Assembly: GCA_034678485.1 (NCBI GenBank)
Contig: JAXDBU010000187.1
Location: 24 to 64,023 of the forward strand
Length of the DNA stretch: 64,000 bases
Reading direction: 5' to 3'
DNA from: Sedimentisphaerales bacterium
Lineage (GTDB): Bacteria; Planctomycetota; Phycisphaerae; Sedimentisphaerales; Anaerobacaceae
Shown here: positions 23,843 to 64,000 of the stretch, piece after piece
Layout: each line of letters starts with the position of its first letter
Numbering within the stretch: position 1 is the first letter of the stretch
Program-made: the position numbers and the translations under genes
The notes under the pieces: model-generated
The model's input: the letters and a program-made list of their open reading frames with translations, nothing else
Told to the model about the DNA's origin: nothing
Databases searched by the model: none

Positions 23843-23874
23843 CAGATAACAGGACGAAAGGAGAAAGCAACGTT

Positions 23875-24690
23875 ATGAAGGCTAAAGAGGCATGGGTCGT
23901 GTGTTTGGCGGGTATGTTCTGCCTGTGTAGTTTCTCGGGCGCGAAGGCCCAAGAACAGCCGGCTCACAAGATCACCGCTCAGGAAGTAGCGGAGATGCTG
24001 GCCGACCCATCGGCGACGATCACCTATCTGAATGCAGCCTATCGAACATACCAGGACGTGGGCCCAAACGACGATACGAACCAGGAGCTTCGATTGAACG
24101 GCGCAGGTTTTCTCAATCTGCCGAACGATACGTCGGTGCTGTACCGGGCGTTTCTGCCCTTGTATTCAACCGAGTTCCCGTTCGATGACCAGGGCGTGGG
24201 CGACGCTCTGCTCTCTGCGTATTGGGTCCCCAAGAAGGGCAACTTGATCCTCGGCTATGGCGGCGCGCTGATCACGCCGACGGCCTCCGAAGACTACTTC
24301 GGCTCCGGCAAGTGGTCAGCGGGACCAACGCTCGTCGTGGCCCAGAAGGTGCCGGGGAAGTTCACGGTCGGCGGATTGCTCACGCACGTCTGGTCTTTTG
24401 CAGGCGAAGAGGACCGCGACGAGGTTAGCCTGACCACCATCCAGCCCGTGGCGACGTTCTTCCTGAACAAGAAGGGCACATCGGTCAGTCTCATGTCGGA
24501 AACCACGTACAACTGGCAAGCCGATGAGGACCCGTGGCAAGTGCCTGTGACTGTCGGACTTGGTCAGATCCTGCCTCCGATCGGCAAACAGTTCATTGGG
24601 GTAGCCGTAGCGGGCACCTACTACGCCGAAAAAGCCGACTATGCGCCGGAATGGGACATCCGGCTGACCGCGTCGGTTGTCTTCCCCTGA
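23875..24690 (+). CDS. Putative outer-membrane beta-barrel channel (uncharacterised transporter-like OMP family)
   Basis: AAAGGAG RBS and signal peptide MKAKEAWVVCLAGMFCLCSFSGAKAQ. The sequence shows an alternating beta pattern, and the C-terminus is ...YYAEKADYAPEWDIRLTASVVFP. Confidence 0.55.
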   Translation: MKAKEAWVVCLAGMFCLCSFSGAKAQEQPAHKITAQEVAEMLADPSATITYLNAAYRTYQDVGPNDDTNQELRLNGAGFLNLPNDTSVLYRAFLPLYSTEFPFDDQGVGDALLSAYWVPKKGNLILGYGGALITPTASEDYFGSGKWSAGPTLVVAQKVPGKFTVGGLLTHVWSFAGEEDRDEVSLTTIQPVATFFLNKKGTSVSLMSETTYNWQADEDPWQVPVTVGLGQILPPIGKQFIGVAVAGTYYAEKADYAPEWDIRLTASVVFP

Positions 24691-24837
24691 GTCGAGAGCG
24701 TTCTTGCTCCGACCGGACAGGGCGAAGATCAAATTCTGGATGGCGAGTCTTCGCTTTCCAGAAAGAAACGGCCTGGCGTATTGCCCGCGTGGGCAGTGGA
24801 TCTGAAAGGTAAGGCATCTTAGAGACAAGGAGAACGA

Positions 24838-25566
24838 ATGAAGATGGGAATGAAGGTAATGTTCATGGCTGGCGTTCTACTGGCGACCGCATCGGGGCTC
24901 ATTGCCCAGGATGAGCACTGGGACTTCGAAGTCACGCCCTATTTCTGGGCGGCTGGAATCGACGGCGAGGCGACGGTCCAGGGCAATCACGCGGATATTG
25001 ATGCGGACTTCGAAGATATCATCGACGCGGTGGATGCCGGAGTAGGCCTGATGACCACGGCCCGCCGGGATTCCTTCGTGGTCTGGGGTCAGTTCGACTA
25101 TGTCGGCATGGACACGGATGAACTGGACGACGCACCTGCGGGTGGCTCGATCCAGACGGACAGCTTCCTGGCGGCGCTGGCTGCCGGCCTCCGATTCGAC
25201 TTGCCGCTCAAGGGCTCTACCATCGACGTTATGGCTGGCTTACGGTATGGCTGTGTGAAGACCGAGGTGGAGATCACCGGCGTGGGCAGTGGGGAGGACA
25301 CCGAGGATCTCATCGATGGCATCTTCGTGTTGCGCCCCAATGTTCGTCTGACGGAGAGGTGGCATTTCAATCCGACGTTCCTCGTCGGCGCAGGCGACTC
25401 GGAATTGACCTGGGAAGTGCAGCCGACCATTGTGTACCGGATCAACGAGGATCTGGCGCTCCGCGCGGGATATCGCCGGGTGTTCTACGACATCGAAGGC
25501 AACGGGGGCAACGGTCTCGAGCTCGCTTTCCAGGGCCTGCTCGTAGGTGTGGACCTGCTGTTCTAA
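24838..25566 (+). CDS. Small outer-membrane beta-barrel protein
   Basis: Has a signal peptide. EVTPYFWAAGIDGE...WGQFDYVGMD...GLLVGVDLLF ends in Phe. It is a paralogue of 37925..38656. Confidence 0.65.
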   Translation: MKMGMKVMFMAGVLLATASGLIAQDEHWDFEVTPYFWAAGIDGEATVQGNHADIDADFEDIIDAVDAGVGLMTTARRDSFVVWGQFDYVGMDTDELDDAPAGGSIQTDSFLAALAAGLRFDLPLKGSTIDVMAGLRYGCVKTEVEITGVGSGEDTEDLIDGIFVLRPNVRLTERWHFNPTFLVGAGDSELTWEVQPTIVYRINEDLALRAGYRRVFYDIEGNGGNGLELAFQGLLVGVDLLF

Positions 25567-25685
25567 CCACATCCGTCTCACCTGCGGCGAGACGAGAAAA
25601 GCCATGTGGTGGATGGGAGAGATTCCGTCAGGATCGTTCCTTGAAGCAGGCAAACAGTGAGAAAACAAATGCCAAGGAGACAGAC

Positions 25686-47784: not shown

Positions 47785-49245
47785 TGTACCTGTCAAGCAC
47801 GAGTGGGACCGCCCGGAGCCGTCGTGATTGGCCTCAGAGCGCCTTCAGGAAAGGGCATGGGTGGGACCGGGGTCAGGATGCCGACGTATCGCCCCGTGCT
47901 GGGGTGGGAGAAAGGACAGAATCCCGGTCTGCAACTCACGCATAGGTAGACTCTGGCCTTGTCGAGAAGTCAGGGGCGATGCAGGAGCCTGGACTACGCT
48001 GCGTTCTTCAGGCGATAGGCGGTGAACCGTGTTTCGGGGAAGACGTGGCGTTCGATCTTGGGGGGCACGGTCTTCGCTCTTCGGTCTGGTGTCTCGGGCT
48101 TGCGGCTGTAATACAGGTCATCCGGCCGGAAACCTTCCAGAGTCATATGCGGGCGCCAGGTGTTGTACCACTTCTCACATTCGCTACCCAGGGATGTGAG
48201 GTAGTCGAAGCCTTTGATGAGCGGAACGCATCGCAGCCACTCATACTTGAGGGTCTTGATGACGCGTTCGGTGACGGCGATGGACCCGTGTTTGCCCACG
48301 GCTCCCAAACGAGGCTTGATGTTCCATTGTCTCAGCAACCCGGCAAAGACGGCGCCGATGAAGACACTGGCCTGATCGGAGATGATGTGCTTCGGCGCGC
48401 CGTGCTTTCGCAGAGCTTGCTCCAGAGCCTCGACGATCCAGCCGGCATTGGGACCTTCCAGCGGAGCGACGCACACGACCTTGCGGGAAAAATGGTCAAT
48501 CGCCACCAGGACCTCAATGGGCCACAGGCCCCAGCATCGGACCTTCGTGGTGTCGATAGACCAGACGTGATTGGGATACCAGGCAGGAATGGAGCGGGAT
48601 TCTGGCTTTTCCTGTGGTTTCTCACGGGTGGCCGCTGGGGTTGTGGGAGTGTTTCGAGGCTTGGGCCGCTGCAAGATGTTTCGCACGGTCGAGGCTGACA
48701 AGAAGATGCCCAGCAGCTTCAGTTGATTGGCAACGCGGATGCGTCCCCAACTGAGGTTGGCCTTGGTGATCTCTCAGACGAGGGAGGCGATCTCCGCCGG
48801 TGTCTTGTTCGTTGGTGTATCGTGGATTCTGGCCCTTTCTTTGGAGGTGTTTCTGCAGGATCGAGAGCTGCATTTCGAGTTGGCAGACCCGATCCTTGAG
48901 GGAGAGGATCTCCTTGGTTCTGGCGTCAGCATCCTTGGCGGCCAAGCGTTTGATGCTACACTGACGCACGCGTCCCGAGAAGCGTGCCGCGAGCAGGGCG
49001 GCCCTGACCAGGAGGGAAACGGCTGCATTGAGGATTTCGAGGTTGTCTGCCATGGTGCCTTTCCGAGGTTGGGGGAGCGATCCAAGCCAAATCGGAGGGC
49101 CTACGGTAGCCTGGAAGGGGCCAAAATGCCAGCGTGGAGTTCGCGACCGCAAGTATCTTTTATCCAAGGAGATAGGGCGGCGTCCAGAGTGGTCCCATTG
49201 GCGCTTGACAGGTACAGGTGGTCCCACCGCCCCTTGACAGGTACA
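47785..49245 (-). mobile_element. IS element (IS481/IS3-like, rve DDE transposase) of about 1.46 kb with 25-bp terminal inverted repeats
   Basis: The left end is TGTACCTGTCAAGcacgagTGGGACC (47785-47810). The right end is GGTCCCAccgcccCTTGACAGGTACA (49220-49245), with a second tandem copy at 49191-49215. The termini read TG...CA. Confidence 0.7.
47994..49053 (-). pseudogene. DDE (rve) transposase, disrupted by one frameshift and one in-frame TGA
   Basis: MADNLEILNAAV...QKHLQRKGQNPRYT, then a frameshift near 48830-48870, then ..TNKTPAEIASLV*EITKANLSWGRIRVANQLKLLGIFLSASTVRNIL...HVWSIDTT...DHFSRKVV...SDQASVF...NTWRPHMTLEG. The TGA is at 48776-48774. Confidence 0.7.
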
Positions 49246-49280: not shown

Positions 49281-52200
49281 CTATCGCTCCGCGCGGCGCG
49301 GGCCCGTTTGGGCCATTTGCCGCAGCCGAGCGGCATGCTCGTACTGCCCCTGGCGTTCAAACGCGGGAGCAAGATCGTTCGCATAACCAGGCTGCTGCTC
49401 CACGGCTCTGCGGGCTAGGACCCAGGCCAGCGGTGCAAGCCGCTGGTAGAGCGCCGGATGGAGAAGGATATCCTGGGCCGCGTGGACATAGCGGCTGGGT
49501 TGCTCCAAAGGCGTGTGGTCCAGTTCTTGCAGGTAATCGGCCGCCTGGGGATGTCCGATCCACAAGGCCGCGGTGGCTCGTGCCCAGTGACTGACAAACG
49601 CATCCGGAGCAGCTTCCAAGTCCCGCGTGTACGTGACAATGCACTCCTGGCAGTGCTGCTGAAAGGTTTGGACGGGTTTCAACGATTCTGCGGTCGAGAG
49701 GTTCGGATCAAGATCCGCGATCCAAGCCTCTCCAAACATCGGGCTCAGACGAATGAGCAATCGTTTTCGATCACACGACCAGGAAGCGCCACCAAAGTGT
49801 CCGGGGAGCAGCTTCACCGCCTCCTTCTTTGTTCGGTCGTAGATCCACAGGCCCGTGTGGTCCCGAATTCCGTTCAGACTTCCCAGGCTGAGTTCGCAGC
49901 CGTCGGGTGACCAGGAGCTAATCCGGGCTTCCAGGGGCACCGGCCACTCGGCGACGCAGGCCTGCGGCGCCACCTCTTGGATTCGCAGGACAGTGCCTTC
50001 CATGTTCGCCAGATAGGAGCCATCGGGCGACACGAGAGGATTGTCTGCGGTACTGGCGCAGACTGCCACAGGTTGCACCTGTAGATTATCGACCGAGATG
50101 GAGTAAATCGCTTGATCGCTATAGGAGCGGTAATACAGCCGCCGACCGTCCGAGCTCCACCCACAATCGTGCGCGCGACGCGCCACGCACCGGGGCGCAC
50201 TGCCATCGGCGTTCATTACCCAGAGTTCCTCGTACCGTTCCTCGCTGTCACTTCCACTCCGGATTCCGCCCGCAGTCAGTTCGGAAACGCGGAGGGCCGG
50301 CACGTCGCGAACGAAACTGATATGACGGCCGTCGGGTGACCAACTCGGGTCTTTGCCCGGAGCGACCAGCAGGCTCCTCGCCCGTGTCTGGACGTCATAG
50401 ACGGCGATGCCGATGCAGCCTGGAAATCCCTGGGCGTAGACTATCTGCGTGCCATCGGGCGACCAGCAGAGACCGAAGCACTGGGTAAACAGTCGGCGGG
50501 CCTTGGCAAAAAGACTACGGTACATTTCCTCCGTCTCGAGCACGTAGAAGAAGGCGGGCCCCTCAGGCGGCCGGTCTGGCGGGTGCCACCGGCCCCCTGC
50601 CGCGAGGGTGTCGAAGACGTACTTCATGGTCCGCCTGCGGACCAGGTCGGCAGTGTTGCCCGGGAGTCCCATGAGGCGTTGCATCAGCACACTGGCCTCT
50701 TCATACCGGCCCAAGGCCATCAAGGCACAGAAGACCTGAGCGTTCAGCTCCACCGCGTTGGGCACTTGCTTCAGACACTCCTGAGCGTCGGCCAGGACCC
50801 GCTCATATTGGCCCATCTGCCACAAGGCCTCAACACGGCGACCGTACAGGTCCTCATACTGGGGGTCTCTCGCCCGCATCAGTGCAAAGGCGCGGTCATA
50901 CTCCGCCACCGCCTCGGGATAACGGCCTACGTGGTGACAGGCGAGTGCGTGCAAGCAATAGGCCTGTGGGTCGCGCTGGTCTACCAGTGTCATGGCGAAA
51001 GCATCGTGCTCCATCGCTTCGTATTCCCCCAGGGCGTAGTAGAGGAAGGCTCGCAGCCGACGCGATTCGTAATGCCCGCGGTCCAATTCCAAGGCCCTGT
51101 CGAGGAGGGCAAGCTGCTCTTTTGCCGTCACAGCCGCCATGGCCTGCAAGAAGTGTGCTTCGGCCGTCTCCGGCAGCAGGGCTGCGGCTTGGCGGCGGTG
51201 TTCCTTGATCTCCTGGAGGTTCTCGGCTGTGAGCGCCCGGCTCTTCCAGAGAAGACACGCCCAGAGCGCGTGGGCTGCCCCGGCAATCTCCGGGCGTTCG
51301 GCCACCAGTTGCTCCAGCAGAGTCGTGGCTTCATCCGGTAAGTGCCCCTCGACCAGAAGGCTGGCGTACAGAAGTTGTGCTTCGGGATCGACGCATCCAC
51401 GCTGGAGGATGGATTGGACCGTTCTGAGGGCCGCGGGATGGTCTCCCTCTGCGTACTGCCCGCGGGCTTGGGACAGAAGATCCCGATACCGAAGATCCTC
51501 TGCCTCTCTCAATTGAAGCCGGGCTCGGTTCCACAAAGACAGGATGCCCCCTGCCGTAGCGGCTATGACGACCAGCACCAGGGCGGCAAAAACCTGGGAA
51601 CGGTGTCGACGGAGGAACTTGGCGAGACGGTACGCTGTCCCAGGACCGCGCGCCACGACCGGCTCGTGCTCCAGGTGACGGCGAATGTCCTCTGCCAGAC
51701 CGTTGACCGTGTTATACCGGTGGGCACGGTCCTTCTCGAGCGTCTTCATCACGATCCAATCCAAGTCGCCCCGCAGGGCCTTGCGGAGCAGATCCGGAGT
51801 CGAACGACGCCGCTGGGCCATGTCGCCTAGGATCTCTCCCAGCGTGCCGAGCTTCGTCGAAGGCTTGATGGGCACTTGTTCCTGGATCACTCGCTGCATT
51901 GCACTGTAACCGGCCCTCCGCAGTTTCGCCTGATCGAACGGCGTAGTTCCCGTGAGCAGTTCATAGAGCAGCACACCCAACGAGTAGACATCCGAGCGAG
52001 TGTCAATGTCGACTTCGCTCTGGTCGACCTGCTCCGGGCTCATATAGACCGGGGTGCCGACCAGGTGACCGTAACCGGTAGAGAAGGTTTCTTCCGTCAG
52101 CCGCTGGTCCGTAGCCTTCGCGATGCCGAAGTCGATAATCTTGGGCACCGGGCCACCGTCCACGAGTGTCACCAGCACATTGGAGGGCTTGAGATCCCGG

Positions 52201-52715
52201 TGGATGATGCCTTTCTGGTGGGCGTGTTGCACGGCGTGGCAGACCTGGATGAACAGGCCCAATCGGTCCTTGATGCTCAGACTACTCCTGTCGCAGTACT
52301 CAGTGATCGAGCCCCCCTGGACTAATTCCATGACGAAGTACGGCCGGCCGGTCTCTGTAGCCCCGGCTTCAAGCACCTTTGCGATATTCGGGTGGTCCAT
52401 GAGAGCCAGGGCTTGCCGCTCCGCGTCGAAGCGGGCGATGACCTGCCGGGTGTCCATGCCCAGCTTGATGATCTTGAGGGCCACCCTGCGATGGATCGGC
52501 TCAGTCTGCTCAGCCAAGTAGACCACCCCCATCCCCCCTTCACCCAGGACCTGCAGGAGCCTGTAACGGCCCACCCATCCGCCAAGGCCCTCGATCTGCG
52601 GTCTCCCCTCCGGGACAGCGGCGTCCTCTTCGCTGTCTTGCAGCCCGAGCGAGATCAGCCGGTCGAGATGCTGTAGCTCGGCCCCAAATGTCGAATCCTC
52701 TGGACGCATGGCCAC
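49281..52715 (-). CDS. Ser/Thr protein kinase with TM helix, TPR region and C-terminal PD40/TolB-like beta-propeller
   Basis: [35 protein letters not shown] and the TM helix [18 protein letters not shown] are present, followed by TPRs. Repeated WSPDG motifs occur ([33 protein letters not shown]). Confidence 0.9.
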
Positions 52716-52762
52716 GGCCTGTCGTATTGGACACCTTCAGGTTTCCTGATAGATCCGCAGCC

Positions 52763-53536
52763 TCACCGTTCCGGCTGCGCGCCGAAGTGCCACGTCTGCA
52801 ACATATCCTGCAATTCCTCCTGCGCGTCAGCATCAGAACCGACCATGCTTCGCAGGTGTTCCTTAAGCGTGCGCTGGAACCGTCGCTTGACGGTGATGAT
52901 CATATTGGAGGCGGTCTTCTCCGCGTCGATGCCGTAGCGATGACAAAGCTCCCGGAGCGGCGGGGATTCCCGGCCTTCAAGAGTCGGGCGCAGGAGGTGA
53001 TCGCGAAAGAGCTGCCAGTGCATCTGCTGGCCGTGAGAGAGACAGTCTCCTTCGACCGCCGCCAGAGTCTGATCCAGGACCGCCGATTTCCAGGCATACA
53101 CGAAGCACTCTTCCGGGCTCCACGTGGAAGCCGCCTGGGGTAGGGCAGGTAGAGGAGCGATGTCGAGTGATACGAGCTTATCTGGCGGGATCCGCTTCTG
53201 GCTGGATTGCCTTCGCTTGATATCCATCACGTACTGCTTGAGGGCGTGGAGTAGAAAGACCCGAAACCGGCCCTTGGACGGGTCGGCCTTCTGGATGAGG
53301 TCGCGATTGAGTACGACCTCGTGAAAGAAACCCTGGGTCATGTCCTTGGCTTGCTCATTGTCACAGCCGTCACGCCGGAGATAGCAGTACACCGGCTTCC
53401 AGTACCGCTCCAGCAGCAGGCCGATCATCACCCGTTCGGGGTCCTCGTGCTTCTGAATACCTTCGATCAGGGACCACTGGGTCGTCAGAAACGTCTCTGC
53501 CATCCCACCTATGTCTGTCGGATCGCGTAGGACCAT
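52763..53536 (-). CDS. ECF-type sigma-70 family factor, kinase-associated (ECF43-like)
   Basis: ...FLTTQWSLIEGIQ...YWKPVYCYLRRDG...AKDMTQGFF.. It lies 47 nt upstream of the kinase gene and no anti-sigma gene lies between them. The start is ambiguous (TTG 53554, ATG 53536, ATG 53503). Confidence 0.85.
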   Translation of the reverse strand: MVLRDPTDIGGMAETFLTTQWSLIEGIQKHEDPERVMIGLLLERYWKPVYCYLRRDGCDNEQAKDMTQGFFHEVVLNRDLIQKADPSKGRFRVFLLHALKQYVMDIKRRQSSQKRIPPDKLVSLDIAPLPALPQAASTWSPEECFVYAWKSAVLDQTLAAVEGDCLSHGQQMHWQLFRDHLLRPTLEGRESPPLRELCHRYGIDAEKTASNMIITVKRRFQRTLKEHLRSMVGSDADAQEELQDMLQTWHFGAQPER

Positions 53537-53837
53537 ACCCGTTGTGCCGCCCAATACACACGGTGCTCGTCTGTTGGTCCATTATACCCGAAATGTCATT
53601 TGGAACACCAAGAATCACTCAGAAAAAACCGATGGCCCGCGCAGCGAACGGTCACTTGCTGCGGATTCACCCAAGAAGACCGGGGCCGGATCATGACCCC
53701 GCTGCTGCGGGATCGCTGCTCTGCGACCGGCAGGGCTTCGTCGGGCGGCATCTGAAGTCAGCAGAAAATCACGTGGACAAGAACGGAAGGAACAGAAAGG
53801 GGAACTGATCTTCGGCAAACCATCGAGAGGGGCAGCA

Positions 53838-54780
53838 ATGAAGATGACACGAATCGCAGCCCTGTTGAGTCCCGTGGTCACTACGCTCGCTGGCGGCCGC
53901 GACGCAACTCCTTGTCAACTCCGGTTTTAACGCCAGCACTGACACCGCCGCCCTGCGAGCGAATTCGGCAGGTCAGGATTGGTGCAAGAGCAGGCAGGAT
54001 GACCCAAGTTATCTCATGCTGGATCGCACCAATGCGGGCGGGAACGACTCAGCGAGGGCGGAATTGACCGCCGCCACTAACAACAGAAGTGCATACTTGG
54101 CGCAGGAATTCAGCTCTCGGCAGACGCAGGCTATGTCCGCTCAGTGGCATATCTACGTGGATTCGATAACCAATCACGCAGACAATCCAGATGGAGCCGC
54201 CTGGATGCTGATCCGCGATGATACATGGACGAACTCCAGCCGCAGTGGGCCGAACGCCGTAGATGGCGAGCGATTTGTCTATATGGCCTTCCACAAGGAC
54301 GACGGCGGCACGACGGACACGACGAGTCTGGTCGCACGGGACGGAGATGATACCTCGACTGCGTTTACCACCGTGGCCACGGGCCTGAACCTCAAACAGC
54401 GGCACATCATAAAGCTGGACCTGTACGTTGTCGCGGATACTTGCGACGTCTGTGTCGATGGCCAGTACAAAGCCACGGTGACGGCGGGAACCGCGGAGAA
54501 CAGCGTCACCCACATCAGTTTTGGAGAGTGGGGGGACGGCCCCTGCACCTTCTGTGCGGATGACATCACCGTGGAGTCGTCGGGAGGTGGGGCGGGTGAA
54601 ATCCTCGTGGTGGACCAGAGCCGGCAGAACATCAGGTTGATTGGCTGCAGAAACCCTATGGAAGACCTGGGCCAGTGGTCGCAGTACTGGACGGTCGGGG
54701 ATACACAGCACCCCGTGGTTTGCTGGACCTTGTCTGTGATAGCAGCAGGCAGCAGGGCGCTCCAAGCGCGCCGAGCCGTC
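53838..54780 (+). pseudogene. Frameshifted gene for a secreted jelly-roll (LamG/ConA-like) protein, first member of the paralogous cluster
   Basis: ATG 53838 encodes MKMTRIAALLSPVVTTLAGG.. (a signal peptide like those of the next two genes) but stops at 53928-53930. The body (...LLVNSGFNASTDTAAL...WHIYVDSITNHADNPDG...HISFGEWGDGPCTFCADDITV) is in frame 1, which is open from 53869. The 3' end is unclear. Confidence 0.35.
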
Positions 54781-54850
54781 GTGGGTACGGATGGCTTTGC
54801 AGCACAGAAACCGAATAGCGAAGCACAGTACTTGCGGAAAGGGTGCCAAG
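54775..54850 (+). promoter_or_regulatory. Conserved 5' leader, copy A (upstream of 54851)
   Basis: About three-quarters identical by eye to 59811-59885. Shares GTGGGTAC, AGAAACCGAA, CGAAGCACA and the GAAAGGGT RBS. A potential 6-bp stem is 54794-54799 / 54819-54824. Confidence 0.4.
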
Positions 54851-57800
54851 ATGAAGACAACGCGAATCCGGGTACCGGTCTTGTTGGCATTGAGTCTCGC
54901 GGCTGCGGGCGGCCTTGGCCCCCTGGCGACGGCTTCCGCTTGCCCGAACTCTGCGGCGAACCTGGTGATCCTGTTGGGACCACATATGCTTACCGTGGGG
55001 CCGGACCTGTGCGACGGCGGTGTCGAGTACGGTTTCGATCCCCAGACGGTGAGTACTGGAGAGCAGATCCACATACTGGGCCGCATCAAGAACACAGGCA
55101 CGGTAACGGTAAGCGCCAATACCTTCCGAGTCGGCTGGTATGCCTCGGCTGACACGACGATCGATCCGGCTGTGGATTATCAGATCGGCGATCTTGGGAC
55201 GTTCCCGAAGGCGATTGAGCCTGGGAGTTTCTACCGGTTCGACGTCCAACGGTTGGTCAATGTCCCGCCCGGTACATACTATGTGGGTTGGATCATCGAT
55301 TGCACCAATGCGGTGGCTGAGACCAATGAATCAAACAACACCGTGTGCATCAAGACCCCCCGGTTGACCGTTCATGCCGCTGAGGTCATCGTTCCCAACG
55401 TGGTGGGGAAGGATGAGGAGTCCGCCATCGGGGCGATCAAGGTGGCGGCGCTTGTGGTGGGCGTGACGACCCGCAGGTGCAGCGATACGGTGGCGGTGGG
55501 AAATGTGATCAGCCAGAGCCCTGCGGCCGGGACTAAAGTCATGAGTGGCTCTGGGGTGAGCCTCGTCATCTCCACCGGGCCATGTCAGGTCGAGACCCAG
55601 GCGGCCACGGACATCACCTGCAGTTCGGCCACGCTCAACGGCAAGGTGGTCGCAGACGGCGGCGCGGTCTGCCAGTATCGGTTCCGGTACAAGAGGTGGG
55701 ACAGCCCCACCTATAGTGAGACCTCCCCGACCGGCTCCAAGCGAACCGGCGAGACCTTCAGCCAGGCTATCACGGGACTGACCCCAAGAACCCAGTACCG
55801 CTTCGCCGCCCGGGTCAGCAACGGCACTTGTGAAAGCGACTGGGGTACCGAGCTGAGGTTCACGACGCCGACATCGCCGACCGTGACCGCGGGGGCGGCC
55901 ACCAACATCACCGCCCATGGCGCCACATTGCACGGCACACTCGTGGACGATGGAGGTCAGACATGTCAATACCAGCTCCGGTACAAGACACGGAATGGAT
56001 CGTACACGGAGAGCAAGTGGACGGGTTCTCTGGGAGGGTGGAATGTCCACTTCAGCATGACGCTATCGAAGCTGAACCCCGGCACGCGATACTACTTCTC
56101 CTTCAGAGCCAGGAATGACTCATGCGAGGGGGCTTGGTCGGACGAGCTGAGCTTCGTGACTCTTGCGGTCACGAAGCCCACTGCCGCCATGGTGGACGTC
56201 ACCAACGTCCTGGAGCGCAGTGCCACGTTTGCCGGGAATATCGTCGACGACGGCAACGAACCCTGTCAATACCGGTTCCGGTACACGTGGCGTCCGCTTC
56301 TGCGAATCATGCAGGGGGTGACTCCTGAAACCTACACGTCGTGGACGGGGGCCAAGAAGGACGGTGAGTCATTCAGCGAGGACATCACCACTCTGGGTCC
56401 CAATACCCCATACACTGTTACGGTCCAGGCCAGGAACTCGGCAGGCGAAGGTCCTTGGAGCACGCCGGTGAGCTTTACGACCCTTGCCATCCCTGTGATC
56501 ACGGATATCCGCAGCATACATTTCAGTCCGATCACGCGCGATTGGTTGCATCCGAGTAGGCACGCTTACTACCTGGATGGGGTCCCCCTGACCGAGCAGA
56601 TCACGGTCGCGGTCGACTGGCACGGAGCGACGCCCGGCAAGATCGAGTGGAAGACGCCGAAAGGAACCTACGAAACCTTGGCCACGGAGGTATCGCGATC
56701 CTTCAATATGGGAAGTGACTTCGGGGCCGGCGGCAAGCTCGTGGTCAAGGCAGTCCCCAGCGATGCACCGGGGGCCAGGGAATCCGCCCCAGTGACGGCC
56801 AATTTCACGGTCATTCCACCACCCCCTGGGATTCCAACGAACCTGCTCTCACAGGACCCATTGACTGTGGCCCAGTCGGTGAACAAGTACGTCGGCCAGT
56901 TCACGGCGAGTCTCCTCAATGAGTCAGACCCGCTGGCCGAGATCTGGATCACTTCAGAAGCCCAAATCCAGGTGATTGTCATGGACGGTTGCGCTCAATA
57001 TCGCCCTCTCTTCCCATTTCCACTCCTTAAAATCCACGCCGCAGGTGAACAAATAAACTGGTTGCTGTGGACATTCCGGTGCGAGTCTTTCTACACGGAT
57101 GGGCAGTGGCAGACGGAGGGGTACCTCGAATCGTCATTATTGCCGGGCGACCCCGAGACGTCGTACAAGAGAGAGTGGGAGCTGTTGTCACTGGATATCC
57201 CAATTCCAGTTGGACCCGTTCCCGTTGCTGTGAGCGTCGACGTGACTGAATCGCTGTCCTCGTACATCGTGGGCGACATAGTGGGCTGGCCCCAAGGGCA
57301 AAGCCCCACACTGGCAGGAGGGATGCGCGTTTTCCATGCAACTGAAGGGACTGCTACTGCAACGGTTGTGGGCTTGTTCGGCAACGGCACCTCGATTAGG
57401 GTGGCGGATAGGTGGTGCAAACACCTCCCAGGCGGGCAGATCAATACCTGTGTACGCCTGCAAATAGAACCGGTGTTCTGCATCTTCGGTTGCTTTGACA
57501 TCTCGACGCCGAGTATCTGGATCCCAGACAGCGGGCCCTGCTGTACGCCTTCTACCCTCACAGCCCAGAGTGTCGGTCCTGCCGCACTCACGACGCGAGC
57601 CAACGAATTCAGACTCATGGCCCGCGATGATCTCGGGTCTGATTACGCCCGCTGGCTGTCGCTCAATCCGGCTGGCAACAGCCAGGGCAGGAACCTGACC
57701 ATCCTCTCCGCCGCAGACGGCGCGCCGGGCGAAGCCGGGGGAGAACAGGTCCTTCAGACCAACGTCTTCAGCGAGTCAAGGCCATCTATAACCGCAGACG

Positions 57801-59779
57801 GCGATCAGTTGTTCCTGGCGTGGGTCTGCGATGACCCTAACCGATCCGGCGTCAACCGTACGAAGCTCGTATTCAGCAGATCAGAGGACGGGAACTGGAC
57901 TGCACCTGGGCCGATCGATGATAATGGAGCCGCGGAGTCCTCGCCGCAACTGGCCGTGCTTGCGAATGGGGAGGTCCTTTGCGCGTGGGAGAAGGTCAAC
58001 AGAATCCTGCCAGACGGTGTGGACATGAAGGGCATGGCCTCGGCCATGGAGGTTGCCGTCGCCTCCTACGACAAGGCAACGGGAATCTGGAGCACGCAGG
58101 TGTTGACCGCCGACTCGCACATGGACCGAACTCCACGGATTGCCGGAGACAACAATAGAGCGATGGTCGTGTGGGTATACAATGACGGGGACGATTTCCT
58201 TGGTGAAGATCCCAACGCCCTCAACACGATTCGCTACAGCCTCTGGAACGGCAGCGCGTGGTCCTCGCCCGCTACGGCCGCCTCCGGAATCGGCTGCATG
58301 CTGAAGACGGCACTGGCCTACGACGGCACACAGGCCGTCTTCGTCTACAGCGTGGACCACGACTGGAACATGGCGACGGACACAGACCAGGAACTGTATG
58401 CCCTGGTCTACGACGGAACCCGGTGGTTGGCGCCCCGGCGGCTGACTGACGATGAAGTCCTCGACGCCAATCCGCAGGTCGTGTACGATGGGACTGATCC
58501 CCTCCTGGTTTGGTGCCGCCAGGGCCAGGTGGTCAGTTGCCGCAACCTGGACCCCAACGACTGTCGATTGGTTCTGGAGGCCGGTAATTCCTTCGGTCCC
58601 AAGGACTTCCGCATGTCTCTGGCCCCCGGTGGGCGGATCTCGCTGGTGTGGACCGGCATCTCTGCCCAGACTCAGGGTATCGACATCTTTGCCGCCTTAT
58701 ACGACCCCTCGCTTGATCTCTGGAGCAATCCTCCTACACTGACCGCGGATAGCGACAAGGAAAGAGCACTGGCCGTCACGTTTGTGGGTCCCGATGAACT
58801 GGCACTGATCTACGACAAGGACAGGCTCAGGGCCGATGAGGACGGGATCCCGGAGGCCTATCAGACGGACCTGTGCGTGCTGCGCCACAGACTCGGCAGG
58901 GACTTGGCGATCTCGCCGGAGGATATCTCCGTCAGTAAGCCCGACCCCAACAACGGCGATCGCGTCCAGATCACGGCCATCGTTCACAACCTGGGGGACG
59001 CACCGGAGGTCAACGTGCCCGTGCAGTTCTTCTACGGCGAGCCGGGCGAGGAGGACGAGTTGATCGCCGATCAGACCCTCCCAGGGCCGATACCCGCAGC
59101 CGGCCAGGAAACGGCATCCTTCACCTGGACCATACCACAGGCTGACCGTGTGACTCAACTGTGCGTCGTGGTCTTCGACACGGCAGACCCGCAGACAGGT
59201 CAGCCCGATCGCAACACGATCAACAACCTCGCGTGCGTCCCGGTGAGGGTCCCGGATCTGACGGTGGAGTCCGTGTCCGTGGAGAAGACCGACTACAAGA
59301 TGCGACGGGTGGTCGCGAGGATCGCCGACCTTGAGCCCGTCTCGGCCCGGGACATCAAGGTCACGATCCGCAGGGATTCTCCCGAGGGCCAAGAGCTGGC
59401 GTCCATGACCATCCCGACCCTCGGCGCCCAGTCCGTTGAGGAGGTTTCGTGGGATTGGGACATCACGTCTCTGTCCTTCGATCGCCACGAGGTCGTCCTG
59501 TACGTCATTGTGGACCCGAGCCAGACCGTGACCGAGGCCGACGAGAACAACAACACGGGCATGGCCCTCGTGCACGTGAGCAAGGCAGGCGACATCACCG
59601 ACGATGGCAGCATCGACGGGATGGACATGTTCTATCTGACGAGACACTGGCTCGACACCAGTGCGAGCCCGGATTGGGTGCCGGGCTGCGACGTGGATCA
59701 CAACGGCCGCATCGACGCCGCGGACCTCGCGATCCTTGCCAGAAACTGGCGATGGGAGGCCGCATGGCACACGGAGTGA
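54851..59779 (+). CDS. Giant secreted multidomain protein (1,642 aa): CARDB - PASTA - 3x Fn3-like - unknown - BNR/sialidase-like propeller - 2x CARDB - dockerin
   Basis: GAAAGGG RBS and signal peptide MKTTRIRVPVLLALSLAAAGGLGPLATASA. PASTA is VIVPNVVGKDEESAIGAIKVAALVVGVTTRRCSDTVAVGNVISQSPAAGTKVMSGSGVSLVISTGP. Fn3-like units carry CQYRFRY. The C-terminal dockerin repeats are GDITDDGSIDGMDMFYL / CDVDHNGRIDAADLAILARNW. Confidence 0.85.
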   Translation: MKTTRIRVPVLLALSLAAAGGLGPLATASACPNSAANLVILLGPHMLTVGPDLCDGGVEYGFDPQTVSTGEQIHILGRIKNTGTVTVSANTFRVGWYASADTTIDPAVDYQIGDLGTFPKAIEPGSFYRFDVQRLVNVPPGTYYVGWIIDCTNAVAETNESNNTVCIKTPRLTVHAAEVIVPNVVGKDEESAIGAIKVAALVVGVTTRRCSDTVAVGNVISQSPAAGTKVMSGSGVSLVISTGPCQVETQAATDITCSSATLNGKVVADGGAVCQYRFRYKRWDSPTYSETSPTGSKRTGETFSQAITGLTPRTQYRFAARVSNGTCESDWGTELRFTTPTSPTVTAGAATNITAHGATLHGTLVDDGGQTCQYQLRYKTRNGSYTESKWTGSLGGWNVHFSMTLSKLNPGTRYYFSFRARNDSCEGAWSDELSFVTLAVTKPTAAMVDVTNVLERSATFAGNIVDDGNEPCQYRFRYTWRPLLRIMQGVTPETYTSWTGAKKDGESFSEDITTLGPNTPYTVTVQARNSAGEGPWSTPVSFTTLAIPVITDIRSIHFSPITRDWLHPSRHAYYLDGVPLTEQITVAVDWHGATPGKIEWKTPKGTYETLATEVSRSFNMGSDFGAGGKLVVKAVPSDAPGARESAPVTANFTVIPPPPGIPTNLLSQDPLTVAQSVNKYVGQFTASLLNESDPLAEIWITSEAQIQVIVMDGCAQYRPLFPFPLLKIHAAGEQINWLLWTFRCESFYTDGQWQTEGYLESSLLPGDPETSYKREWELLSLDIPIPVGPVPVAVSVDVTESLSSYIVGDIVGWPQGQSPTLAGGMRVFHATEGTATATVVGLFGNGTSIRVADRWCKHLPGGQINTCVRLQIEPVFCIFGCFDISTPSIWIPDSGPCCTPSTLTAQSVGPAALTTRANEFRLMARDDLGSDYARWLSLNPAGNSQGRNLTILSAADGAPGEAGGEQVLQTNVFSESRPSITADGDQLFLAWVCDDPNRSGVNRTKLVFSRSEDGNWTAPGPIDDNGAAESSPQLAVLANGEVLCAWEKVNRILPDGVDMKGMASAMEVAVASYDKATGIWSTQVLTADSHMDRTPRIAGDNNRAMVVWVYNDGDDFLGEDPNALNTIRYSLWNGSAWSSPATAASGIGCMLKTALAYDGTQAVFVYSVDHDWNMATDTDQELYALVYDGTRWLAPRRLTDDEVLDANPQVVYDGTDPLLVWCRQGQVVSCRNLDPNDCRLVLEAGNSFGPKDFRMSLAPGGRISLVWTGISAQTQGIDIFAALYDPSLDLWSNPPTLTADSDKERALAVTFVGPDELALIYDKDRLRADEDGIPEAYQTDLCVLRHRLGRDLAISPEDISVSKPDPNNGDRVQITAIVHNLGDAPEVNVPVQFFYGEPGEEDELIADQTLPGPIPAAGQETASFTWTIPQADRVTQLCVVVFDTADPQTGQPDRNTINNLACVPVRVPDLTVESVSVEKTDYKMRRVVARIADLEPVSARDIKVTIRRDSPEGQELASMTIPTLGAQSVEEVSWDWDITSLSFDRHEVVLYVIVDPSQTVTEADENNNTGMALVHVSKAGDITDDGSIDGMDMFYLTRHWLDTSASPDWVPGCDVDHNGRIDAADLAILARNWRWEAAWHTE
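54995..55585 (+). repeat. CARDB+PASTA module, copy 1 of a ~590-bp dispersed repeat
   Basis: Three 60-nt blocks compared by hand with 60720-61310 gave 56/60, 57/60 and 53/60 identities. Confidence 0.75.
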
Positions 59780-59810
59780 TCCCACTGGACAGTTCCTTGA
59801 TCTCGCAGGA

Positions 59811-59885
59811 GTCGCCGTGGGTACAGACCGCTTCGCGGCAGAGAAACCGAACCACGAAGCACAATCCTTGTGAAAGGGTCGAGAT
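59811..59885 (+). promoter_or_regulatory. Conserved 5' leader, copy B (upstream of 59886)
   Basis: See copy A. The stem is 59830-59835 (GCTTCG) / 59855-59860 (CGAAGC). Confidence 0.4.
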
Positions 59886-62800
59886 ATGAAGACGACACAA
59901 ATCCGGATGAGGGTCTTGCTGACATTGAGTCTCACGGTCGTAGGCGGCCTGGCCCCCCTGGTGAGGGGCGAACTGTGCACAGTGCCTTTTCGGTGCCGTG
60001 TGGACAGTGTTGAGGAGGAGAACTTGGGCTTGCATGATATAGTCGCGGGCGATGAATTCACGGGCAGCTACACATTCGACACCGCCACGCCCCCGTCGGG
60101 TTACCCTTCTCCGGGAGTCCCTCTCTACGTGTTCAGCGGTCCGCAGCAGCGATTTATCGTGTCTGTCGGGCCCTACACATGGCGGTCGAAGGACTCCTGG
60201 AGCTGCCGCGTCAGCGATGATGCCACGTGCGAAACCTGTGCCGACTACTTTCTGAGCGGCGCACAAGGTTGGGACTTGTTCGACCTTGAGCAGATAGCGG
60301 GTCCTGCCTTGCCGGCAGGTGCGACCAGCACGGTCGGTTGGGAGCTCGTGTCGAGGACGCACCCATCTGCGATCACGAGCACCGAAATGCCCCGGATCTT
60401 CCCGGACGCGAGCCTGTTCGAAGCAGACAATCTCCTGATTGTTAGCGTCTGCAGCAGTGGCTCGGCGGCCGTCCTGGTAAAGGCCCACTTCATCGCCCTT
60501 TCTTCCCGGACCACTGTTCCGAACGTAGAACAGATCGCGGAATCCGACGCCGAATTGGTAATCAAGGGCGCCAGACTGGTGGTGGGGGCCAAGACCTCCG
60601 AGTGCAGCGATACCGTGGCGAAGGATAAGGTGATCAGACAGAGCCCTGCGGCGGGGACTACCGTTTCCCCAAACTCCGCGGTGAACCTGGTGATCTCGTC
60701 TGGGTGGTGTCCGGTTACCGTGGGGCCGGACCTGTGCGACGGCGGCGTCGAGTACGGTTTGGATCCCCAGACGGTGAATACCGGAGAGCAGATCCATATA
60801 GTGGGCCGCATCAAGAACACAGGCACGGTAAGGGTAAGCGCCAATACCTTCGAGGTCCGCTTCTATGCCTCGGCTGACACGACGATCGATCCGGCTGTGG
60901 ATCATCAGATCGCCGGGGGGACGTTCCCCAATGCGATTGAACCTGGGAATTTTTACCGCTTCAATCTCGCAGCGCTGGTCAACATCCCGCCCGGTACCTA
61001 CTACGTAGGCTGGATCATCGATTGCACCAATGCGGTGGCTGAGACCAATGAATCGAACAACACCGTGTGCATCACGACCTTCCGGTTGACCATTCGTGCC
61101 ACGAAAGTCACCGTTCCCAATGTGGAGGGCAAGGATGAGGCATCCGCCATCGAGGCGATCAAGGCGGCGGCGCTTGTGGTGGGCGTGACGACCCGCAGTT
61201 GCAGCAATACGGTGGCGGTGGGAAATGTGATCAGCCAGAGCCCGCAGGCGGGGAGTTCCGTCGACTCCGGCTCGACAGTGAACCTGACCATCTCTACCGG
61301 GCCATGTCCTGTGACGGTACCCAACGTGGTGGGTAAGACGGAAGCCCAGGCCGGCGCCGCGATCGGTTCGGCCGGACTTGTCGTGGGAGCCAAGACCTCC
61401 CAGTGCAGCGATACGGTGGCAGCGGGCATAGTGATCAGCCAGAGCCCTGAGCCGAACGCTTCAGTTCCTGCCAATTCAGCAGTGAGCCTGGTGATCTCAT
61501 CCGGGCCTTGTCCCAAGCCGAACCTGGTAGGCACCGGGTGCACCTTTGGCCCGAGCTTCATGGTGAAGCCGGGAGACCGGGTCACTGTGAATCTGATCGT
61601 GTCAAACGACTCCAGCGTGGCCTTCCAGGGGGACATCACGGTTGAATTCACGCTGTCGGCGGCCGGAGACAGCCCCATTTCCCTGGGATTGGTGACCGGG
61701 CGCAATGTGTCCATCGCAGAGGGTGGGACGACCAGAATTAGTTGGGAGGGGGCTCTGCCCAGCAATCTGGCCGACGGCGAGTATTCCCTGTGCTGGATCA
61801 TGAGCACGCCGGTGACTGAGAGCCGCGGAGACGACAACAACGGCTGTGAGCCTATACTTCTGAGTGTCAGTTCGGCTCAGGTTGTCCAAGGGTGTTACAG
61901 GGAAGGGAGTACCCCGCCGCCCGGGCTGATCATCCAACCGTCCAATCCCACGTCTCTCGATGCGATCATGGTGATTGTTCCAACGCCCGTGTTTAAGAAC
62001 CTGAAGGAGGCGTGCCAGACCCTGGGTGATCCGAAGGCATGCATCGACACGACGACCAGGACAATCACGCTGTATTTTGAGTCTGTTTGGCCTGGGGCGG
62101 TCCCCGATATCGAGTCTCCCTTCTGCGCGATCGAGGTCGGCGTTGACCTATTGCCGGTGGGCCAATGGCGGTTTGTGGCCCAGGTGCTGGACCGGGCGTT
62201 CGACGAATCGTTCGAGGTGAAGGAGCCCGTTCCGGCCGGCGCGATCGTCTATGTCGATTGCGATGCGACTGGGGCCGACGATGGTACGAGTTGGGAGAAT
62301 GCCTTTGTCACGCTGCAGGATGCCCTGGCTTCGGCTCCGGCCGGCTCGGAGATCCGCGTGGCTGAAGGGACATACCGGGCGGACTCGATGTTCGAAGTGA
62401 AATCCGGCCAGGCGGTCCTCGGCGGTTTTGCGGGCGTCGGGGCGCCGAGCCCGAACCTCCGCGCCATCGTGGGCCAGCCGACCATCCTGAGCGGCGACTT
62501 GAACGGCGACGATGCCGACGTACCCGACGTGGCTCAGTTTGATGGTGAACCGACCCGATCGGAAAACAGTCCGGCCATCGTGAGTCTTCAGAGCGGAGAC
62601 AACACGGTATTCTCGGGCTTTACTGTCCAAGGGGCCCAGCGCAGTGCGTTTGAAACCTTTGCGTTTGCAGTCAATGGTGGTAGTCCGACGATTAGTGATT
62701 GCGTCTTCAAAGATAATACGAGCCCTACTGTCTGGAATAGAAGTGGTAGCCCCAGCTACACGAATTGTGCCTTCCAGCACAATTATGGGGCCGGCATGCA

Positions 62801-64000
62801 TAACGACCACAACACTAGCCCCTTGGTGAAGAATTGCGCCTTCAGTGACAACACGGGAGAGGGTGGTGGGATGCGCAACATCAGCAGCAATCCGACCGTG
62901 GACAGTTGCACCTTCAGCGGAAATCGCTCAATGTATACTAGCTGTAATGGTGGCGGGATATACAGTTACGAAGGCACTCTGATAGTGACCAACTGCACGT
63001 TTAACGCAAATAAGGGCATGGGCATGGGCGCGGGTGGCGGATTGTACGTCAGCAAGTGCGCCTCGACTGTGTCAAACTGCAGGTTCACTGGAAACGCCGC
63101 CCATGTTGGCGGTGGGCTGTATAGCGACGGGGGCTCTCCGACCGTAAACGATTGCACGTTTATAGGAAACTCCGCTACCAGCGCCGCCGGCGGAATGTAT
63201 ACCTGCGCCGGTTCGACCGTGACCAACTGCACGTTCAATGGGAACTACTCAGCCCTTGAAGGCGGCGGGATGGTCGTTCTTGATGGCTCGACGGTAACTA
63301 ACTGCACGCTTAGTGGGAACTCGGCCGGTGAAGGCGGCGGGATGACCACTTACGGCAGTCCGGCGGTGACCAACTGCATCATCTGGGCCAACACGGGAGA
63401 TCAGATACTCAGCATTAACCCAGATCCCACCCTGTCGCACTGCTGCGTCCAGGGCGGCTGGTCCGGCCCGGGCGACAACAACACGGATGAAGATCCGCAG
63501 CTCGACGCCGATGGCCGGCTCTCTGCCGGTTCACCCTGCATCGATGCGGGCGACAATGCCGCCGTCACGGACTCGACGGACTTGGCCGGCGATCCTCGGA
63601 TCGTCGATGGCGACGGCGACGGCGCGGCCATCGTGGACATGGGGGCCTATGAATTCCAGGCACCTATGATTCGTGTCACTGTCCCGGATGTCGTGGGCAT
63701 GACGCAAGCGGATGCGGAATCGGCCATCACCTCCGCCGGCCTCACGGCGGGTACGGTCGCCACAGAATACAGCGATACCGTCGGACCTGGCCTGGTGATC
63801 AGCCAGTCTCCGGTCGCGGGCTCCCAGGCGGACGCCGGCTCAGCGGTCAACCTGGTTGTGTCTCTTGGACCTGGGTCTGGGGAACGCCTCGTGGCGCATT
63901 GGAAGCTGGATGAGGCCAGCGGCAGCACCGCGCACGACAGCTTCGACAACGGCTATCATGGGACGCTCTACGGCAATCCCCAATGGCAGCCGGAGGCGGG
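59886..64000 (+). CDS. Giant secreted multidomain protein, 3'-incomplete (at least 1,371 aa): unknown N-domain - PASTA - CARDB - 2x PASTA - CARDB-like - Pmp-like beta-helix - PASTA - LamG...
   Basis: Absent from the ORF track, which lists no ORF without an in-window stop. I translated all 1,371 codons by hand and found no stop. It starts MKTTQIRMRVLLTLSLTVVGGLAPLVRG and ends ...ERLVAHWKLDEASGSTAHDSFDNGYHGTLYGNPQWQPEA at the window edge. Confidence 0.8.
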   Translation, partial: MKTTQIRMRVLLTLSLTVVGGLAPLVRGELCTVPFRCRVDSVEEENLGLHDIVAGDEFTGSYTFDTATPPSGYPSPGVPLYVFSGPQQRFIVSVGPYTWRSKDSWSCRVSDDATCETCADYFLSGAQGWDLFDLEQIAGPALPAGATSTVGWELVSRTHPSAITSTEMPRIFPDASLFEADNLLIVSVCSSGSAAVLVKAHFIALSSRTTVPNVEQIAESDAELVIKGARLVVGAKTSECSDTVAKDKVIRQSPAAGTTVSPNSAVNLVISSGWCPVTVGPDLCDGGVEYGLDPQTVNTGEQIHIVGRIKNTGTVRVSANTFEVRFYASADTTIDPAVDHQIAGGTFPNAIEPGNFYRFNLAALVNIPPGTYYVGWIIDCTNAVAETNESNNTVCITTFRLTIRATKVTVPNVEGKDEASAIEAIKAAALVVGVTTRSCSNTVAVGNVISQSPQAGSSVDSGSTVNLTISTGPCPVTVPNVVGKTEAQAGAAIGSAGLVVGAKTSQCSDTVAAGIVISQSPEPNASVPANSAVSLVISSGPCPKPNLVGTGCTFGPSFMVKPGDRVTVNLIVSNDSSVAFQGDITVEFTLSAAGDSPISLGLVTGRNVSIAEGGTTRISWEGALPSNLADGEYSLCWIMSTPVTESRGDDNNGCEPILLSVSSAQVVQGCYREGSTPPPGLIIQPSNPTSLDAIMVIVPTPVFKNLKEACQTLGDPKACIDTTTRTITLYFESVWPGAVPDIESPFCAIEVGVDLLPVGQWRFVAQVLDRAFDESFEVKEPVPAGAIVYVDCDATGADDGTSWENAFVTLQDALASAPAGSEIRVAEGTYRADSMFEVKSGQAVLGGFAGVGAPSPNLRAIVGQPTILSGDLNGDDADVPDVAQFDGEPTRSENSPAIVSLQSGDNTVFSGFTVQGAQRSAFETFAFAVNGGSPTISDCVFKDNTSPTVWNRSGSPSYTNCAFQHNYGAGMHNDHNTSPLVKNCAFSDNTGEGGGMRNISSNPTVDSCTFSGNRSMYTSCNGGGIYSYEGTLIVTNCTFNANKGMGMGAGGGLYVSKCASTVSNCRFTGNAAHVGGGLYSDGGSPTVNDCTFIGNSATSAAGGMYTCAGSTVTNCTFNGNYSALEGGGMVVLDGSTVTNCTLSGNSAGEGGGMTTYGSPAVTNCIIWANTGDQILSINPDPTLSHCCVQGGWSGPGDNNTDEDPQLDADGRLSAGSPCIDAGDNAAVTDSTDLAGDPRIVDGDGDGAAIVDMGAYEFQAPMIRVTVPDVVGMTQADAESAITSAGLTAGTVATEYSDTVGPGLVISQSPVAGSQADAGSAVNLVVSLGPGSGERLVAHWKLDEASGSTAHDSFDNGYHGTLYGNPQWQPEA
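60720..61310 (+). repeat. CARDB+PASTA module, copy 2 of the ~590-bp dispersed repeat
   Basis: See 54995..55585. Confidence 0.75.

Follow-up and report, generated by a model that had tools for sequence, protein, structure and literature searches.

Gene pairs consisting of a sigma factor of the extracytoplasmic function (ECF) type and a Ser/Thr kinase have been described for groups ECF43, ECF59-62, ECF217, ECF267 and ECF283, with ECF60 being noted for its divergent sigma-2 domain (PMC7826278). In ECF43, the kinase phosphorylates region 2.2 of a sigma factor that lacks the DAED motif, leading to RNA polymerase binding (PMC8999054, PMC13147305). In Clostridium thermocellum and its relatives, SigI/RsgI pairs adjust the expression of the cellulosome and its dockerin proteins to the polysaccharides outside the cell (PMC11557425, PMC6056542), and for Phycisphaerae, a planctosome has been hypothesized in which cohesin/dockerin modules occur in giant secreted proteins and in peptidases (PMC6461901). 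Here, we analyzed a locus within a 64,000-nt stretch of DNA (hereafter, the window) from a Sedimentisphaerales bacterium (GenBank assembly GCA_034678485.1, contig JAXDBU010000187.1), in which a sigma-like gene and a kinase gene on the minus strand are divergent from three plus-strand genes (genes 1 to 3). An earlier note, made from the sequence alone, had read this locus as a candidate new envelope system with three giant secreted proteins containing PASTA and CARDB domains, and knew of no described system like it. Pairings of ECF sigma factors with Ser/Thr kinases are, however, already described (PMC7826278, PMC8999054), and novelty resides at most in a three-part cassette, of which we consider the locus to be a copy. 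Specifically, we assign a probability of about 0.55 to the explanation that this cassette has multiplied extensively in Phycisphaerae/Sedimentisphaerales and that the partner slot of the window copy was later rebuilt by a copied block. In the literature searched, we found no description of a conserved divergent LamG/dockerin/PD40 partner or of a twice-used cis element such as those reported below.

The window pair resembles the ECF43 systems EcfP/PknT of Vibrio parahaemolyticus and EcfK/PknS of Xanthomonas citri in that a small ECF-type sigma gene adjoins a gene for a membrane Hanks-type kinase, no anti-sigma gene is present, and the DAED motif of sigma region 2.2 is not intact, the window protein having QAKD instead. 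In contrast to EcfP, where the phosphorylated positions read STTA (PMC8999054), the window protein has no Ser or Thr at these four positions, and its region 4 is undetectable. The window family differs further in the kinase ectodomain, which consists of TPR and PD40 with or without a lectin-like domain, in its occurrence in Phycisphaerae with hundreds of paralogues, and in the fixed divergent secreted partner. Membership of the window protein in ECF43 is not supported by its sequence. The planctomycetal groups ECF59-62 and ECF217, compared by description, share with the window family the phylum, the sigma-kinase pairing and large kinases with beta-propeller repeats. By analogy, the nearest functional parallel of the cassette would be SigI/RsgI: many paralogous pairs of sigma factor and membrane sensor per genome, outer domains of the carbohydrate-binding type and secreted dockerin targets are common to both, whereas the window sensor is a kinase rather than an anti-sigma factor, the sigma family and the phylum are unrelated, and the window contains no cohesin scaffold. 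With the planctosome, the locus has in common giant modular dockerin proteins as well as the M14 peptidases and dockerins found among the cassette partners; the planctosome proposal, however, names no regulator, and no cohesin was found in the window analysis.

Three genes make up the cassette: a divergent ECF-like sigma gene is directly followed by one for a membrane Ser/Thr kinase, and the third, read in the opposite direction, encodes a secreted protein. The conservation of this cassette was analyzed in 158 loci encoding relatives of the window sigma-like protein (78 genomic and 80 metagenomic; 1.62 Mb in total; sigma identity 50-84%), nearly all of which come from metagenome-assembled genomes of Phycisphaerae or Sedimentisphaerales. 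The metagenomic relatives were recovered with an alignment as the query, a previous search for exact peptides of the window protein having yielded none. The kinase gene lies directly downstream of the sigma gene in 121 of 126 loci, and a divergently read gene is found no more than 700 nt from the sigma gene in 105 of 112 loci, with a median gap of 270 nt, compared with 301 nt between the sigma-like gene and the first plus-strand ATG (53838) in the window. Nearly all partner products (99/105) have a hydrophobic, signal peptide-like N-terminus, 57 of the 105 carry a C-terminal LamG domain, and their lengths range from approximately 170 to 1100 aa, with a median of 556 aa and the largest being 1113 aa. 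Among 55 partners searched against Pfam, we identified Laminin_G_3 (29), PD40 (22), dockerin (12), Kelch (8), F5/8C (6) and, more rarely, GDSL (5), M14 (3) and Beta_helix (3). PASTA and CARDB were detected in none of the 105 partner products, and anywhere within 10 kb in only 2 of the 158 loci. Thus, the positional link between the sigma-kinase pair and a secreted-protein gene, on which the earlier note relied, turned out to be the rule among relatives. Within the family, the link of the pair with the divergent gene is real, and the synteny, together with the common cis element described below, backs it as a functional one. Across L007-L164, the partners reuse the types of domains that form kinase ectodomains (PD40 propeller, LamG and F5/8 type C), a sharing that hints that partner and sensor might bind the same ligand or each other.

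When the 220 nt preceding the partner genes were searched for motifs, a 40-nt element emerged, GCAnGAT..TTTCTTACGGATTGTATTGCAGAG, located 95-145 nt before the partner ATG. The spacer contains a copy pointing toward the partner in 58 of 75 training loci and in 53 of 69 independent metagenomic loci, the 80 metagenomic loci having been kept out of motif building. A second copy, placed over the sigma stop codon and pointing toward the kinase, was found in 27 of 78 training and 18 of 74 independent loci, and elsewhere the element has just 28 further matches in 3.2 M positions. The window contains its own version of the element, GAACGGT-N4-7-CTGCGGAT, which occurs exactly twice in 64 kb, at both expected sites, against a chance expectation of 0, this 19-21-nt pattern having been defined only after both copies had been seen. 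In the family, the element marks only the first partner, being found upstream of one of nine further LamG genes along the divergent run. We consider it a candidate sigma-dependent promoter or operator. No plus-strand terminator-like site was detected between genes 1, 2 and 3, so that transcription starting at the element may read through, and genes 2 and 3 possibly remain under the control of this sigma factor.

Among the partner genes of other loci, those of the MKWLN type (L015-L073) encode very similar signal peptides, MKWLNGYRMRLVLVG..ADFTFGEP, and have in common, in the 75 nt before the ATG, a leader that ends with ..AAGGGCRGAAAGGNAGGTG-N4-ATGAAATGG. A small hairpin preceding the ribosome-binding site in partner leaders was considered and dropped, given that it comprises only 5 pairs with almost no covariation.

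In its sigma-then-kinase order, its 301-nt spacer and its own version of the element at both sites, the window conforms to the cassette. It departs from the usual partner type, with a broken giant gene followed by genes for giants of 1642 and 1732 aa in the slot. Signal peptide-like N-termini are indeed encoded at the starts of all three plus-strand genes (53838, 54851 and 59886), as the earlier note had proposed; its count of three giants, in contrast, falls to two, gene 1 being a frameshifted remnant of about 290 codons. A frameshift at about 53895, within the signal peptide of gene 1 (MKMTRIAALLSPVVTTLAGG), puts this peptide and the body into different reading frames, and the body reads into gene 2 without encountering a stop codon. 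No Pfam match and no PDB sequence match were obtained for gene 1. Gene 2 encodes, in this order, a signal peptide, CARDB, PASTA, three Fn3 domains, an unassigned region, a propeller-like region, two CARDB domains and a dockerin, and gene 3, a signal peptide, an N-terminal domain, PASTA, CARDB, two PASTA domains, a beta-helix with a choice-of-anchor Q domain, a further PASTA and two LamG domains. The domain inventory that had been read from the sequence thus largely held in the Pfam and NCBIfam searches: PASTA occurs five times (once in gene 2, four times in gene 3) and CARDB four times (three times and once, respectively), alongside three Fn3 repeats, a dockerin and two LamG domains. The four PASTA copies of gene 3 together score 218.5 bits (PF03793 cut-off, 23.2), and the scores for CARDB (PF07705; 82.9 and 36.7 bits), Dockerin_1 (PF00404; 33.7), fn3 (PF00041; 67.8) and Laminin_G_3 (PF13385; 137.5 in P0138) exceed the curated cut-offs as well. 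A beta-helix in gene 3 is supported by the Beta_helix profile (76-77 bits), whereas its proposed Pmp-like character is not, Chlam_PMP scoring 15.1 bits against a cut-off of 20.6; residues 1212-1259 of the same protein (63516-63659) match the choice-of-anchor Q model with 34.8 bits (NCBIfam cut-off, 25). For the suggested BNR-like propeller, the Pfam scan gave no BNR match in the giants, and a sequence search with the gene 2 core gave no PDB match. The structural model of this core is all-beta, with a mean predicted local distance difference test (pLDDT) score of 57.5 (60-88 over residues 120-450), and its best Foldseek matches are six-bladed sialidase/lectin propellers (E=1.8e-10; template modelling score, 0.35-0.62), so that, with a model of medium confidence, such a propeller is plausible at the fold level only.

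The origin of the broken partner slot can be traced by comparison with two relatives. Residues 20-293 of P0123 (2162 aa) and P0122 (2101 aa) correspond to the body of gene 1, with 50-52% identity, and what remains of these proteins can be aligned with gene 2, starting at its residue 246 and continuing to its end (45-47% identity over 85% of the gene 2 length). Genes 1 and 2, aligning to consecutive parts of the same proteins, are thus two pieces of a single ancestral giant of about 2100 aa, split by a copied block in which gene 2 now begins. Of this block, the leader and signal peptide (54773-54932) match 59809-59967 with 76% identity over 160 nt, and the part encoding CARDB and PASTA (54925-55586) matches 60650-61308 with 84% identity over 664 nt (blastn). 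The leader common to genes 2 and 3, noticed previously, is therefore explained by the copying of a block from the 5' end of gene 3; the idea that this leader is a repeated element was rejected, no further copies being present in the window. Because the only PASTA domain of gene 2 lies within the copied block and Pfam detects no PASTA in P0123 and P0122, this domain is a recent import. Overall, the giants are modular secreted binding/adhesion proteins assembled by domain shuffling, and the window offers a worked example of how a promoter-signal peptide-domain block copied between giants rebuilds a giant gene. No full-length relative of gene 3 was found (best coverage, 27%); its last 190 aa are 45-56% identical to the C-terminal LamG domain of cassette partners. 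P0123, the intact relative of genes 1 and 2, is encoded 3.6 kb from a paralogous sigma-kinase pair (OY970194.1, a 7.5-Mb Sedimentisphaerales sequence; L005 10001-24452), of which it is not the divergent neighbour, the pair's own divergent partner being an S8 peptidase with LamG.

Table 1. Features of the sigma-kinase locus and its surroundings, in window coordinates
Feature	Position	Strand	Description	Basis
Sigma-like gene	52763..53536	-	257 aa; divergent sigma-70-family (ECF-like)	Sigma70_r2
Membrane Hanks-type Ser/Thr kinase gene	49281..52715	-	1144 aa; Pkinase, transmembrane segment, TPR and PD40	Pfam
Candidate cis element, copy 1 (GAACGGTCACTTGCTGCGGAT)	53646..53666	+	171 nt upstream of gene 1 ATG, toward gene 1	
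Candidate cis element, copy 2 (GAACGGTGAGGCTGCGGAT)	52753..52771	-	overlaps sigma stop, toward kinase	
Gene 1	53838..54700	+	signal peptide and N-terminal domain of about 250 aa; about 290 codons	frame analysis
Copied block	54773..55586	+	leader, signal peptide, CARDB and PASTA; resembles gene 3 5' end	blastn
Gene 2	54851..59779	+	1642 aa; chimeric secreted giant, identical to P0121	Pfam
Gene 2 PASTA	55385-55582	+	E=1.2e-14, 54.5 bits	Pfam
Gene 2 propeller-like region	~57790-58780	+		structure model
Gene 2 dockerin	59585-59743	+		Pfam
Gene 3 (P0138)	59886..64000	+	1732 aa; extends about 1.08 kb beyond window end	Pfam, NCBIfam
Gene 3 PASTA	60513-60704, 61107-61304, 61311-61508, 63675-63875	+	E=7e-66	Pfam, tblastn coordinates
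Gene 3 CARDB	60741-61079	+		Pfam
Gene 3 beta-helix with choice-of-anchor Q domain	~62226-63665	+		Pfam, NCBIfam
Gene 3 C-terminal LamG (two)	from 63888	+	almost wholly past window end	Pfam
IS3-family insertion sequence	47785..49245	-	terminal inverted repeats of 34-39 nt ending TG...CA; rve open reading frame 47994-48701	

The kinase contains a Hanks-type catalytic domain (Pkinase, E=1e-45 over residues 51-303) on the cytoplasmic side, followed by a single transmembrane segment and an outer part composed of TPR and a PD40 propeller; its gene begins about 50 nt past the sigma stop codon, with the ATG at 52709 probably being the true start. Neither Pfam nor NCBIfam detects PASTA in this protein, the ectodomain of which is unlike that of PknB/Stk1, so that this part of the earlier description stands. 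Over residues 3-1136, the kinase is 62-67% identical to proteins of 1343-1370 aa, and all five closest full-length relatives carry a DUF1349 tail of about 205 aa that is absent from the window kinase, whereas more distant relatives terminate at the same point as the latter. The tail was likely, although not provably, lost in the window copy. Elsewhere in the kinase family, the ectodomain tails are DUF1349, LamG or F5/8C. An IS3-family element (rve, E=1.2e-15) occupies 47785-49245, 36 nt beyond the end of the kinase gene, with no visible target-site duplication. The divergent neighbours of the closest kinase subfamily are small secreted repeat proteins (L004 401-2527, L001 7762-8697, L002 7686-8696 and L010 5983-9790), which lack Pfam matches but have a C-terminus in common (LHVAGYVLAKGYYTGDLFFQKDGRTLWRMFEDEAGLYVE, then a coiled coil with KLP at its end).

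Several observations weigh against the cassette reading, and they concern the partner slot, the element and the sigma-like protein itself. Giants are absent from the partner slot of other cassettes, none of the 105 partners exceeding 1113 aa, and the closest sigma relative (L085; 84% identity) is paired with an ordinary PD40-type partner. The family position weight matrix (PWM) scores only 9.3 bits at 53642-53681 of the GC-rich window, which ranks eighth among the window positions, and the window-specific pattern is a post hoc one. Neither the family PWM, nor the window pattern, nor a gapped pattern detects the element in the leaders of genes 2 and 3, and a likeness of these leaders to the element that had been noticed by eye (TACGGAT...CAGAAACC) was rejected, with the PWM score below 0 and the gapped pattern negative. 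Furthermore, the locus is rearranged, with an insertion sequence beside the kinase gene, a kinase lacking the tail of its subfamily and a broken gene 1; these features suggest that the window copy of the cassette may be decaying, an assembly error being the alternative.

In an alternative explanation, the giants are unconnected with the sigma-kinase pair and the adjacency is secondary: a rearrangement, through activity of the insertion sequence and recombination between paralogous giant genes, would have replaced or displaced a small original partner, and genes 2 and 3 would now use their duplicated leader under some other control. Consistent with this scenario, which we regard as possible but not probable, no partner elsewhere is a giant or contains PASTA or CARDB, the closest sigma relatives face PD40-type (L085) or beta-helix (L087, L089 and L008) partners, genes 2 and 3 have leaders without the element, an IS3 element adjoins the kinase gene, whose product lacks the usual tail, and proteins similar to those of genes 2 and 3 are found without a sigma or kinase gene nearby. 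However, the gene 1 remnant occupies exactly the partner slot, behind a 301-nt spacer with the element aimed at it, and a gene 2 homologue, P0123, also resides in the vicinity of a paralogous sigma-kinase pair. The only partner-type parts of the window giants, namely, the LamG end of gene 3 and the dockerin end of gene 2 (a domain present in 12 of 55 partners), likewise speak against a secondary adjacency, as does the lack of terminator-like sites among genes 1-3, and we favour the view that the locus is a cassette copy with a rebuilt partner slot.

The sigma-like protein is itself a source of doubt. Sigma70_r2 matches it with 24.6 bits, just above the Pfam cut-off of 24, and TIGR02937 with 21.3 bits, below the NCBIfam cut-off of 42.9. 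Sigma region 4 was undetectable in the window protein and in the 78 family representatives, so that the sigma identity is carried by region 2 alone. The family profile matches ECF sigma structures in register over region 2, although weakly and in no case significantly (E=0.025-0.9), the hhalign comparison with RpoE was not significant (probability, 2.8%), and the single-sequence model is poor (pLDDT, 49.7). In the alignments, QAKD occupies the positions of the canonical DAED of region 2.2, with the acidic charge mostly gone and no Ser or Thr at the four positions; a conserved Thr, in D-[LM]-T-Q, follows two residues after QAKD and is a candidate phosphorylation site. These features could be accounted for if the protein were another kind of kinase-controlled DNA-binding or adaptor protein, with the element serving as an operator rather than a promoter, and the two halves of the element are, in our reading, closer to each other than the -35/-10 boxes of known ECF promoters. 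We nevertheless consider this improbable, given that 37 of the 78 family representatives match Sigma70_r2 (best E=4e-8) and one matches Sigma70_ECF, that the weak structural matches coincide with region 2, that the modelled protein is all-helical and sigma-sized, and that the sigma-then-kinase order is that of the described ECF-kinase groups (PMC7826278). The sigma assignment thus appears weak but consistent. The family is large, with 241 clusters at 50% identity at E<=1e-30 and 5881 at E<=1e-10.

The PASTA domains, which gave the locus its initial appeal, belong to the same Pfam family as those of PknB/Stk1 kinases and class B penicillin-binding proteins (PBPs) but, unlike the latter, are not fused to a kinase or transpeptidase and are scattered among CARDB, beta-helix and LamG domains. 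Searches with the giants retrieved more than 200 large secreted proteins (about 900-2800 aa) with several PASTA units, none of them a kinase or a PBP. They come from Hydrogenedentes, Planctomycetota, Nitrospira, Acidobacteria and others, and in them PASTA is found beside EF-hand, PKD, FG-GAP/VCBS, Kelch, NHL, RHS, peptidase, beta-helix, LamG or dockerin modules. Neither a sigma nor a kinase gene is located near the genes for the closest CARDB-PASTA-LamG proteins (P0287 and P0256) or the gene 2-like P0124. In such varied secreted proteins, PASTA thus behaves as a general extracellular module and is a common building block of proteins of this type; in the window, PASTA and CARDB are best viewed as shuffled modules, being neither the sensor of the system nor part of the conserved cassette. 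The split PASTA sensor conceived in the earlier note, in which secreted giants would bind muropeptide, lipid II or a glycan and signal to a PASTA-less PknB-like kinase, is very improbable: the PASTA units are real and most resemble the corresponding region of the Stk1/PknB model (NF033483, E=5.6e-57), the kinase lacks PASTA, and the kinase and giant genes are adjacent, but PASTA is missing from all 105 partners and nearly all cassette neighbourhoods, contrary to the synteny that the idea implies, the ancestral type of partner (P0123 and P0122) is PASTA-free with the gene 2 domain recently copied, PASTA occurs in more than 200 unrelated large secreted proteins, and the kinase has a large ectodomain of its own. 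A new envelope system of secreted PASTA giants would be striking if true; the evidence is to the contrary. The wide spread of PASTA outside kinases and PBPs in environmental bacteria calls for caution in reading this domain as a peptidoglycan sensor.

Elsewhere in the window (13923-20581 and 21018-28118), a gene for a hybrid histidine kinase of 1685 aa, which has LamG at its N-terminus and also contains Reg_prop/Y_Y_Y propellers, precedes those for a sigma-54 activator and two sulfatases. This group of genes seems to be a further polymer-sensing unit, differing in type from the sigma-kinase cassette. A search of the window with Rfam at gathering thresholds and a tRNA scan found nothing.

If the locus is a cassette copy with a rebuilt partner slot, its function and history could be envisaged as follows. 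The kinase ectodomain would respond to a cue from outside the cell, a polymer or glycan being the most likely one, and the kinase would activate the sigma factor by phosphorylation, as in EcfP/PknT and EcfK/PknS; this step is proposed purely by analogy, since QAKD offers no Ser or Thr. The sigma factor would then recognize the conserved element in front of the partner gene, and in many copies of the cassette a second one in front of the kinase gene; both the promoter role of the element and the nature of the cue are what we infer. The partner slot of the window copy held a giant of about 2100 aa with an N-domain, Fn3 repeats, a propeller, CARDB and a dockerin, which was split when a 5' block was copied from the neighbouring giant gene. 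The outcome is a dead gene 1 remnant under the cassette element, followed by the chimeric gene 2 and then gene 3, each with a different leader.

More tentatively, and at odds that we put below even, Phycisphaerae might possess hundreds of such self-contained units, each with a divergent sigma factor, a lectin/propeller kinase, a secreted partner and a twice-used element. These units would form a kinase-based counterpart of SigI/RsgI or of the regulators of polysaccharide utilization loci, tuning a planctosome-like secretome to outside polymers, and the window would represent a case of cargo capture, with giant PASTA/CARDB proteins acquired by recombination. The three-part cassette could thereby explain how Phycisphaerae, which are rich in sigma factors and kinases, couple the sensing of polymers to individual secreted proteins.

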